Of a stretch of 25,289 nucleotides of DNA, positions 6,643 to 7,538 are shown in pieces. Under the pieces are notes generated by a model. The model was not told the DNA's origin. It made no database searches and was given only the letters and a program-made list of their open reading frames with translations. Position numbers and translations under genes: made by a program. Positions within the stretch are counted from its first letter, which is position 1; the number at the start of each line of letters is the position of its first letter. Source of the stretch: a virus (Duplodnaviria > Heunggongvirae > Uroviricota > Caudoviricetes); the IMG/VR virus record IMGVR_UViG_2698536647_000005, one strand, 5' to 3'.

Positions 6643-6672
6643 ACTATAGCTACTTTAAGTAGATAATTGCAA
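6643..6672 (-). promoter_or_regulatory. Putative pL promoter with OL operator
   Basis: On the minus strand: -35 TTGCAA (6667-6672), an 18-nt spacer containing the 13-bp palindrome CTACTTTAAGTAG (6650-6662), and -10 TATAGT (6643-6648). The same palindrome family occurs at OR; further AGTAG half-sites at 6681-6704. Confidence 0.45.
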
Positions 6673-6736
6673 CAACAAAAAGTAGAAAATGAAATTTTTA
6701 GTAGTGTAGTGTTATGAGGTGAGGAATTGGAGACGT

Positions 6737-6760
6737 AAAAAAAACCGGCTTTCGCCGGTT
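6737..6760 (-). terminator. Intrinsic terminator directly downstream of cI
   Basis: Read on the minus strand: stem AACCGGC, loop GAAA, stem GCCGGTT, followed by eight U residues. Separates cI from the pL region. Confidence 0.7.
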
Positions 6761-6777
6761 TCTTGATGAATTAATTA

Positions 6778-7497
6778 TTAGCCAAACTCTATCATTTTTA
6801 GAGGTAAGCATCTGATTAGCTTGCCGAATATGTATAGTTCATTCATTTCATGCTCCTCTATGAAGAAGGGCGGGTAATGTTCATTGTCTGAAAGAACTGC
6901 CAGTCGGCGCCCTTTTACCTTCTGCAAACGTTTAACGAACGTACTGTCTTCAAAATTGAACACATAAACGCCGTCGCCGCTGAATTGTTCAACCTTGCTG
7001 TCTATGAAAAGCAGGTCCTTTGGGCAAAGCGTAGGCATCATGCTATCGCCATCAACATTTATCATGACGATGCCATCAAGGCTTCTACGACCAAACAACT
7101 CGAAGATCCTCTCTTCTGGAATCTCTATTGAGCTCACTATTGTAGGGAATGGTTGGTTTATATATCCGGAACCGGCTGAAGCATGAACATCCAATTGCTC
7201 TATTCTGACCGTGCCTTTGGCTGGCGCGTCGCCACCATTAACAGGCACACCATAATCAAGATAAGCCGGTGAGACGGCAAGTCTTTCTGCAATTCGAATC
7301 ATCTTCTCATCTCTCGGCTTTGCAGTACCAAGAGTGTAGCGCCGCGCCATCTCATACGAGACACCACTGAACTCTGACAATTCTTTAACTCCAATAGATT
7401 GCTCTTGGAGAGACCTGTTTAGCCTTTCGGCAAAGTCTTTGTATTTAGCATTTTCCACCATAAGTAGAAGATTAAGCGCACAAGGCATAGTTGTCAT
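6778..7497 (-). CDS. cI: CI-type prophage repressor (helix-turn-helix N-terminal domain plus S24 LexA-like peptidase domain), 239 aa
   Basis: N-terminal XRE-type helix-turn-helix (GVKELSEFSGVSYEMARRY), an Ala-Gly autocleavage candidate (ASAGSG), the serine nucleophile motif GDSM and the catalytic lysine context FVKRL. The ATG abuts the operator region with no Shine-Dalgarno sequence, consistent with a leaderless pRM-type transcript. Divergent from cro. Confidence 0.85.
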   Translation of the reverse strand: MTTMPCALNLLLMVENAKYKDFAERLNRSLQEQSIGVKELSEFSGVSYEMARRYTLGTAKPRDEKMIRIAERLAVSPAYLDYGVPVNGGDAPAKGTVRIEQLDVHASAGSGYINQPFPTIVSSIEIPEERIFELFGRRSLDGIVMINVDGDSMMPTLCPKDLLFIDSKVEQFSGDGVYVFNFEDSTFVKRLQKVKGRRLAVLSDNEHYPPFFIEEHEMNELYIFGKLIRCLPLKMIEFG

Positions 7498-7501
7498 TTC
7501 T

Positions 7502-7538
7502 ATTTTAAGTTGCTAATAATTGCTACTATAAGTAGTAT
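7502..7538. promoter_or_regulatory. OR region with divergent pR (plus strand) and pRM (minus strand)
   Basis: Plus strand: -35 TTGCTA (7510-7515), 17-nt spacer, -10 TAGTAT (7533-7538), with the palindrome CTACTATAAGTAG (7523-7535) overlapping. Minus strand: TAAAAT -10 element immediately before the cI ATG. Confidence 0.5.

Follow-up and report, generated by a model that had tools for sequence, protein, structure and literature searches.

A predicted lambda-type immunity switch with CTAC-N5-GTAG operators and a probably leaderless cI gene in a lambdoid prophage

Where does the repressor of a temperate phage bind, and where does its own gene begin? Both questions are raised by a divergent cI/cro locus at positions 6643-7538 of IMG/VR virus record IMGVR_UViG_2698536647_000005 (Caudoviricetes; the whole stretch of 25,289 nucleotides is called the window below), which an initial annotation, made from the sequence alone, had described as an immunity region with the same palindrome at its left (OL) and right (OR) operators. 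The explanation that best accounts for the region as a whole, and that we consider very probable on sequence evidence, is that a lambdoid prophage of the SfV/e14 type has its immunity switch here, a lambda-type on/off switch in which five operators with the core CTAC-N5-GTAG flank the cI-cro module.

The palindrome was indeed found at both places, in each case as a perfect CTAC-N5-GTAG dyad. OL1 (6650-6662, CTACTTTAAGTAG) fills the spacer of the leftward promoter pL, and OR1 (7523-7535, CTACTATAAGTAG) lies across the spacer and -10 of the rightward promoter pR; these overlaps, which had also been predicted, are kept in relatives from many genera. The motif scan that had been proposed for the window and related phages gave, with the earlier reader's pattern and up to two mismatches, seven strand-matches in the window; dinucleotide shuffles led us to expect 0.56, and not one of 100 such shuffles reached seven. 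The sites also recurred in relatives, including the phage Aaphi23.

For a more sensitive scan we used a weight matrix of 17 columns, trained on the sites of 17 related loci with the window excluded. Among the ~25,000 positions of the window, its five best matches were OL1 (22.9, the top score), OR1 (22.8), OR2 (7500-7512, CTATTTTAAGTTG; 18.7), OL2 (6673-6685, CAACAAAAAGTAG; 18.2) and OR3 (7455-7467, CCACCATAAGTAG, reading CTACTTATGGTGG on the cI strand; 17.3). The next score was 16.4 (7814-7830), after which there was a drop to 8.5; the best score per shuffle, over 50 shuffles, had a mean of 10.9 and a maximum of 17.5. OL2 is 23 bp from OL1, directly upstream of the pL -35. OR2 is 23 bp from OR1, abutting the -35 of pRM, the promoter proposed for cI, and overlapping that of pR. 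OR3 is 45 bp from OR2, and its centre coincides with the proposed cI start codon (ATG 7461) and with the predicted +1 of pRM. The informative core of the operator was CTAC-N5-GTAG, often extended to TTCTAC...GTAGAA, rather than CTACTNTAAGTAG. The AGTAG half-sites that had been noticed nearby are real, and most are parts of full imperfect dyads, i.e., OL2, OR2 and OR3. As predicted from these matches, OR is a region with three sites and OL one with at least two.

Two further candidates were considered. A possible third site on the left (6692-6704, AAATTTTTAGTAG; matrix score 8.5) has one good half-site, with a further GTAG at 6706-6709, and is too weak to call. A perfect palindrome, CAACTTTAAGTTG (7816-7828, across the cro stop codon; 16.4), resembles the weaker operator arms. 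It was not counted as an operator: it recurred weakly in one relative (L002, 13.3) and in no other, and may be either a chance occurrence or a lineage-specific extra site.

A search with one genome per species yielded 79 related loci. The first comparison set comprised 17 related loci together with the window, i.e., 18 loci, with hosts in the genera Mixta, Pantoea, Providencia, Rouxiella, Proteus, Morganella, Buttiauxella, Citrobacter, Phlomobacter, Pusillimonas and Neptunicella. All 18 had a homologous Cro protein encoded divergently from cI. Measured from the annotated cI ATG, the sites lay at -38 (OR1, range -39 to -35), -15 (OR2) and +30 (OR3). OR1 and OR2 were kept in all 18 loci, and OR3 at its constant offset in 14, being weaker in the other four, which are of Pantoea type. 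The bases separating the sites had diverged. On the left, OL2, the pL -35 (TTGnnn), OL1 and the pL -10 were kept as one block across relatives; the 11 loci whose repressor is full-length had a site 23 bp from OL1, and in several relatives (L021, L024, L028 and L039) a third OL site was clear, its distance varying from locus to locus.

The arrangement extends to more distant loci. Among 22 of these with an OR1 site, from Haemophilus, Aggregatibacter, Acinetobacter, Collimonas and a betaproteobacterium, OR3 was present in 16, and the spacings were 23-24 and 44-45 bp. The isolated temperate phage Aaphi23 has three sites of this type separating cro and cI. The Acinetobacter loci L033-L059 keep the in-frame 'VEN' codons that follow OR3 (GTAGAAAAT), even where the codon before them is not a start (TGC, AGC or TAT) and translation must begin ~8-10 codons later. 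Because these codons are kept even there, GTAGAA is evidently conserved as DNA, i.e., as an operator arm, and not as protein.

Of the two early promoters, pL was the more straightforward. A promoter scan placed it on the minus strand at 6643-6672, with a -35 of TTGCAA (6672-6667), an 18-bp spacer and a -10 of TATAGT (6648-6643); transcription is predicted to start near A6636 and to read leftwards into an open reading frame (ORF) for a ClpX-type zinc-finger protein. In 16 of 17 loci the pL -35 and -10 held a constant position relative to OL1. For pR, on the plus strand, the conserved candidate read from the sequence (7510-7538) has TTGCTA (7510-7515), 17 bp and TAGTAT (7533-7538); its predicted start is near A7545, and AGGAG lies at 7558-7562, ahead of the cro ATG (7567).

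A second candidate for pR, i.e., TTGTCA (7491-7496), 18 bp and AATAAT (7515-7520), scored higher in the window. If this were the promoter used here, transcription would start near 7527, inside OR1, so that OR2 would lie in the spacer and OR1 at +1, and TTGCTA/TAGTAT would not be pR. It is the best sigma-70 match of the region (10/12 versus 8/12), and the same arrangement scored best in L002 and L006. However, it is not conserved: its -35 exists only where the base after the ATGAC of pRM is A, and is lost in L007, L021, L023, L024 and others. The promoter equivalent to TTGCTA/TAGTAT was the best-scoring one in 11 of the 18 loci, and its position mirrors the strictly kept layout of pL, with the -35 adjoining site 2 and site 1 in the spacer. 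We therefore regard the upstream promoter as unlikely, although a real contender; OR1 and OR2 overlap pR whichever candidate is right.

The start of cI raised a similar choice. RefSeq places it at 7497 (6778-7497, minus strand), giving a protein of 239 residues. Within the 12 codons that separate this start from ATG 7461, the only conserved bases formed a -35/17 bp/TAnnnT pattern, which we propose to be pRM (7462-7497, minus strand): a -35 of ATGACA (7497-7492), a 17-bp spacer and a -10 of TAATCT (7474-7469), followed after 7 nt by ATG 7461. ATGAC, the fixed but unconserved 17-bp spacer, TAnnnT, the 7 nt and ATG 7461 were invariant in arrangement across the 18 loci. Codons 3-9 of the extension showed 541, 676 and 591 differences at codon positions 1, 2 and 3, i.e., no third-position excess, whereas codons 22-85 in the same comparison showed 718, 458 and 1623. 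Residues 3-9 were not conserved at all, and M13 (239-residue numbering), the methionine of ATG 7461, was invariant in homologues. In the distant relatives from Haemophilus, Aggregatibacter, Acinetobacter and Collimonas, the 'ATG' of the -35 was replaced, the hexamer reading TTGAAT, TTGGTG or GTGACA, and was followed by TAnnnT, with the whole block still in its place separating OR2 and OR3. In Pasteurellaceae loci there were even in-frame stop codons after the block, cI starting instead at a downstream ATG with a Shine-Dalgarno sequence.

These results, i.e., the non-coding substitution pattern, the unconserved residues, the conserved promoter pattern and the stops in distant relatives, argue that the 12-codon block is a promoter and is not coding. 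In the enterobacterial lineage no start codon was found from ATG 7461 to the helix-turn-helix (HTH) domain, and no Shine-Dalgarno sequence before ATG 7461, so the mRNA should begin at most 1 nt from that codon. Most likely, as judged from the comparative data, cI encodes a leaderless protein of 227 residues (6778-7461, minus strand; MVENAKYKDF..., with the helix SYEMARRYT), starting 36 bases after the RefSeq start. The initial annotation had called cI leaderless; this found comparative support for ATG 7461, but not for the start at 7497.

The RefSeq model itself would have ATGAC and the TAnnnT/CTAC blocks conserved as a start codon and as coding sequence (MT...NLLLMVE), with pRM lying further upstream, inside OR1-OR2. 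Most database homologues are likewise called at 239-241 residues with an 'MT' start, the ATG is invariant, and the frame is open in the 18 closest loci. Set against the substitution pattern and the distant relatives just described, and with no Shine-Dalgarno sequence upstream of 7497 in the window, we judge this model improbable. A minor 239-residue isoform is possible, since the invariant A of ATGAC fits a start codon and is not needed by a -35.

Do the dyads belong to this repressor? Loci with a matching N-terminal domain were fetched via the peptide pattern YEMARRYT, which covers the predicted recognition helix. At least two sites adjoined the repressor start in 39 of the 41 loci with the helix YEMARRY, compared with 0 of the 38 loci whose S24 repressors carried other helices; the latter had different repeated dyads, e.g., ATAAC-N4-GTTAT three times. 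The invariance of the helix is partly an effect of ascertainment, because the loci were retrieved through that pattern, and the matrix was trained on 17 of the same 41 loci. The contrast in co-occurrence still holds despite the retrieval bias. That the dyads were conserved merely through recent transfer of the module, or are bound by another factor (a CII/YmfL-like or host protein), is highly improbable: cI and Cro both co-occur with the sites and so cannot be separated by sequence analysis, but the repressors compared range down to 26-35% overall identity to the query (45-52% in the DNA-binding domain of the phage matches), sites, spacing and promoter overlap have survived although the sequence from one site to the next is randomised, the sites give way to other dyads where the helix differs, and dyads over the -35, spacer and -10 of divergent promoters occupy classical operator positions.

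From this arrangement we infer the following mechanism. A dimeric HTH and S24 repressor, with the recognition helix S-Y-E-M-A-R-R-Y-T, would bind the 13-bp dyads with the core CTAC-N5-GTAG, with a cooperativity and an order of occupancy that are likewise predicted. Occupation of OR1 (pR spacer and -10) and OR2 (pR -35) would turn off cro and the early rightward genes, and occupation of OL1 (pL spacer) and OL2 (abutting the -35) would turn off leftward early transcription. Transcription of cI would come from pRM (ATGACA, 17 bp, TAATCT), which separates OR2 and OR3, starting at the A of ATG 7461 or no more than 1 nt from it, to give a leaderless mRNA for the 227-residue protein that would end at the gene's own terminator. 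Repressor bound at OR2, just upstream of the pRM -35 and centred at about -45, may stimulate pRM. Because OR3 is centred on the start point, high levels of repressor would shut pRM off. Cro presumably binds the same operators with the opposite preference and shuts off pRM. RecA activated in the SOS response would trigger self-cleavage of the repressor, as predicted from an Ala-Gly site and a Ser/Lys dyad.

Several observations weigh against this reading, in addition to the better-scoring second candidate for pR, the RefSeq start and the possible longer isoform, and the two limits on the helix comparison, all noted above. In the window OR3 is degenerate, one arm reading CCAC, and the Met-Val-Glu codons run into its right arm; the Pantoea group has an even weaker OR3. 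Activation of pRM is uncertain, because OR2 lies ~3 bp further from the pRM +1 than in lambda. Finally, in a literature search the six operator strings appeared in no relevant paper, and YEMARRY appeared in none of the matches listed.

The proteins fit their proposed roles. In Pfam searches cI matched HTH_3 (23.6 bits against a cut-off of 23, residues 38-80) and Peptidase_S24 (62.6 bits). In an alignment of 26 homologues, S152 (in GDSM) and K189 were invariant, A108-G109 was nearly so (239-residue numbering), and the helix region of cI was invariant. By sequence features, cI thus appears to be a lambda-type CI, with an N-terminal HTH and a C-terminal S24 domain with a Ser/Lys dyad and an Ala-Gly site; no solved structure was detectable by sequence for the repressor. 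The cro-like gene (7567-7824, plus strand) encodes an 85-residue HTH protein of Cro/YdaS type (PF15943, 36.4 bits against a cut-off of 30). Being small, divergent from cI and placed directly after pR, its product looks like a Cro-type lytic repressor.

Both remaining statements of the initial annotation about cI, i.e., that it has its own terminator and that rex-like genes are absent, agreed with our results. An intrinsic terminator for cI lies at 6737-6764 on the minus strand, comprising a hairpin (AAACCGGC-GAAA-GCCGGTTT) of -16 kcal/mol (z = -3.3) and U8. An equivalent GC hairpin with a T run was found 3' of the repressor gene in 14 of 17 aligned loci. A simple terminator scan missed the hairpin in the window, probably because A-U pairs absorb the T run, and it was revealed by direct folding. 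In the ~105 bp from the cI stop (6778) to pL there was no ORF of at least 40 residues, and hence no counterpart of rexA or rexB.

Some related repressors are probably shorter. Those of L021, L024, L028 and L029 (from Buttiauxella, Citrobacter braakii and other Enterobacteriaceae) have these operators and an N-terminal DNA-binding domain in common with this cI (50-62% identity in that domain). They probably correspond to short database homologues of the N-terminal domain (P0092-P0120), which are 137-171 residues long and have no S24 match. Judging by their domain content, repressors lacking the S24 peptidase would not be cleavable through RecA and may need an antirepressor.

How does this switch compare with known ones? 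In lambda, cI is flanked by OR1-3 and OL1-3 with pR and pL, sites 1 and 2 are spaced by 24 bp, OR2 is centred at -42 relative to the pRM +1, and the pRM transcript is leaderless. Shared with lambda are the divergent cI and cro genes; an HTH and S24 self-cleaving repressor (cleavage being predicted here); imperfect, odd-length dyads that overlap pR and pL, with sites 1 and 2 spaced by 23 bp here; a site 2 that adjoins the pRM -35; a cI mRNA beginning at the start codon (predicted here); and a third site able to shut off pRM (also predicted). In contrast to lambda, whose operators are 17-bp sites of TATCACCGCCAGTGGTA type, the core here is the 13-bp CTAC-N5-GTAG. OR3 is 45 bp from OR2 and centred on the pRM +1 and ATG, whereas lambda OR3 covers the pRM spacer at a distance of 23 bp; the centre of OR2 is at about -45 rather than -42. 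The locus also lacks rexA and rexB, cI having its own terminator; OL and OR are ~870 bp apart rather than 2.4 kb; pL is followed by the ClpX-type zinc-finger ORF, with no N-like gene recognised; and Cro is of the YdaS-type family.

Gene order and architecture (a cI gene with its own terminator, cro and a YmfL-like gene) are those of the group including SfV and ST64B/e14. In the SfV record, cI is closely followed by an annotated rho-independent terminator; a 'putative operator region' and cro are also marked, and orf36 takes the place of the YmfL-type gene. However, the cI-cro cassette here has no nucleotide similarity to those of that group, which therefore represents a different immunity type. 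The flanks of the cassette (6563 to ~6650 and 8344-8428) are ~90% identical to SfV, ST64B, SfIV and other phages, and the combination of such flanks with unrelated cassettes places mosaic joints right at the cassette edges. The left flank, 6563-6650, corresponds to a leader of ~100 nt, on the minus strand, running from pL to the ClpX-type zinc-finger ORF, and 8344-8428 to the end of the YmfL-like gene.

In the operators themselves there was a likeness to Aaphi23 of Aggregatibacter actinomycetemcomitans (cI, ORF17; cro, ORF18), whose repressor is 52% identical in the DNA-binding domain and has the YEMARRYT helix. With related Haemophilus and Acinetobacter prophages it shares three operators at 23- and 44-bp spacing and a -35/TAnnnT promoter separating sites 2 and 3. 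Apart from the hosts and the rest of the genomes, this group differs in that its cI is not leaderless: a leader of ~30 nt carries a Shine-Dalgarno sequence, and the ATG lies downstream of OR3. Operators are not annotated in the GenBank record of Aaphi23, and neither that record nor the one for SfV lists an operator sequence of this family.

The initial annotation had called the operator distinctive and had it define the immunity of this prophage. It does differ from those of lambda, 434 and P22, but it belongs to a wide family and is not a feature of this prophage alone: both motif and geometry were also seen in prophages whose hosts include Pantoea, Providencia, Proteus, Morganella, Haemophilus, Aggregatibacter and Acinetobacter. 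We would suggest, tentatively and with somewhat more doubt than confidence, that the YEMARRYT helix, CTAC-N5-GTAG and the fixed OR geometry (spacings of 23 and 44-45 bp, pRM separating sites 2 and 3, and site 3 on the transcript start) form one ancient immunity specificity, common to temperate phages that infect Enterobacterales, Pasteurellales, Acinetobacter and some Betaproteobacteria. If so, this E. coli prophage would also be repressed by the repressors of, e.g., Aaphi23 or Providencia phages, which would be unusual in that phage immunity regions normally diversify fast. In the same tentative spirit, a leadered cI may have become leaderless within Enterobacterales through the placing of a start codon in the centre of OR3.

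No new kind of mechanism is involved, the switch being an ordinary lambda-type one; mildly unexpected are the breadth of the operator-helix pair with its geometry, and the probable mis-annotation of the start codon. The likely start of cI is corrected, and with it that of hundreds of database homologues annotated alike. The loci also form a natural series: all else diverges among them, but operator, recognition helix and promoter geometry do not change. The series spans the proposed transition from leadered to leaderless cI, and could be of use in work on how switches evolve and on leaderless translation.

A copy of the switch that is 99.8% identical is present in E. coli Nissle 1917, in a prophage that adjoins cmoA/yecN and that also encodes an integrase, an excisionase and a Q antiterminator. 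The operators and promoters mapped here thus give a concrete guide to a prophage carried by Nissle 1917 and by strains engineered from it, which is useful where that prophage is to be controlled or cured. The immunity cassette was found in 33 of 5,426 complete E. coli genomes and, among phage records, only in KM389288, which is unannotated. For E. coli Nissle prophage 3, Bury et al. 2018 (PMC5987069) reported that a 'phage repressor pr' (EcN_1294) protects both Nissle and K-12 from lambda and Stx phages. We considered whether pr is this cI, and rejected the idea: no match to its quantitative PCR primer occurs in the window, and the amplicon that was cloned measures only 410 bp.

Around the switch, the RdgC gene (4887-5804, minus strand) lies to the left. 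Read from left to right over ~6100-8500, the genes include that for the ClpX-type zinc-finger protein (6168-6536, minus strand), which is the reading frame downstream of pL, then cI, cro, a CII/YmfL-type gene adjoining cro (7856-8419; domain search) and, last, a replication-initiator-like gene. Neither an N-like gene nor a nut site was recognised in the pL leader region, and Rfam gave zero matches in the immunity region. On the plus strand at 6132-6335, overlapping the minus-strand ClpX-type zinc-finger ORF, is an ORF for a zinc-ribbon protein of 67 residues with weak Lar/Com-like matches; a terminator-like hairpin with a 12-bp stem (6363-6390, plus strand) lies 3' of it, and in the overlap at 6132-6390 RefSeq annotates the minus-strand ORF only. 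The late region of the prophage (15328-15633 and 15899-16105) contains three consecutive transfer RNA genes and a match to the small RNA family STnc100 (53 bits against a gathering score of 47).

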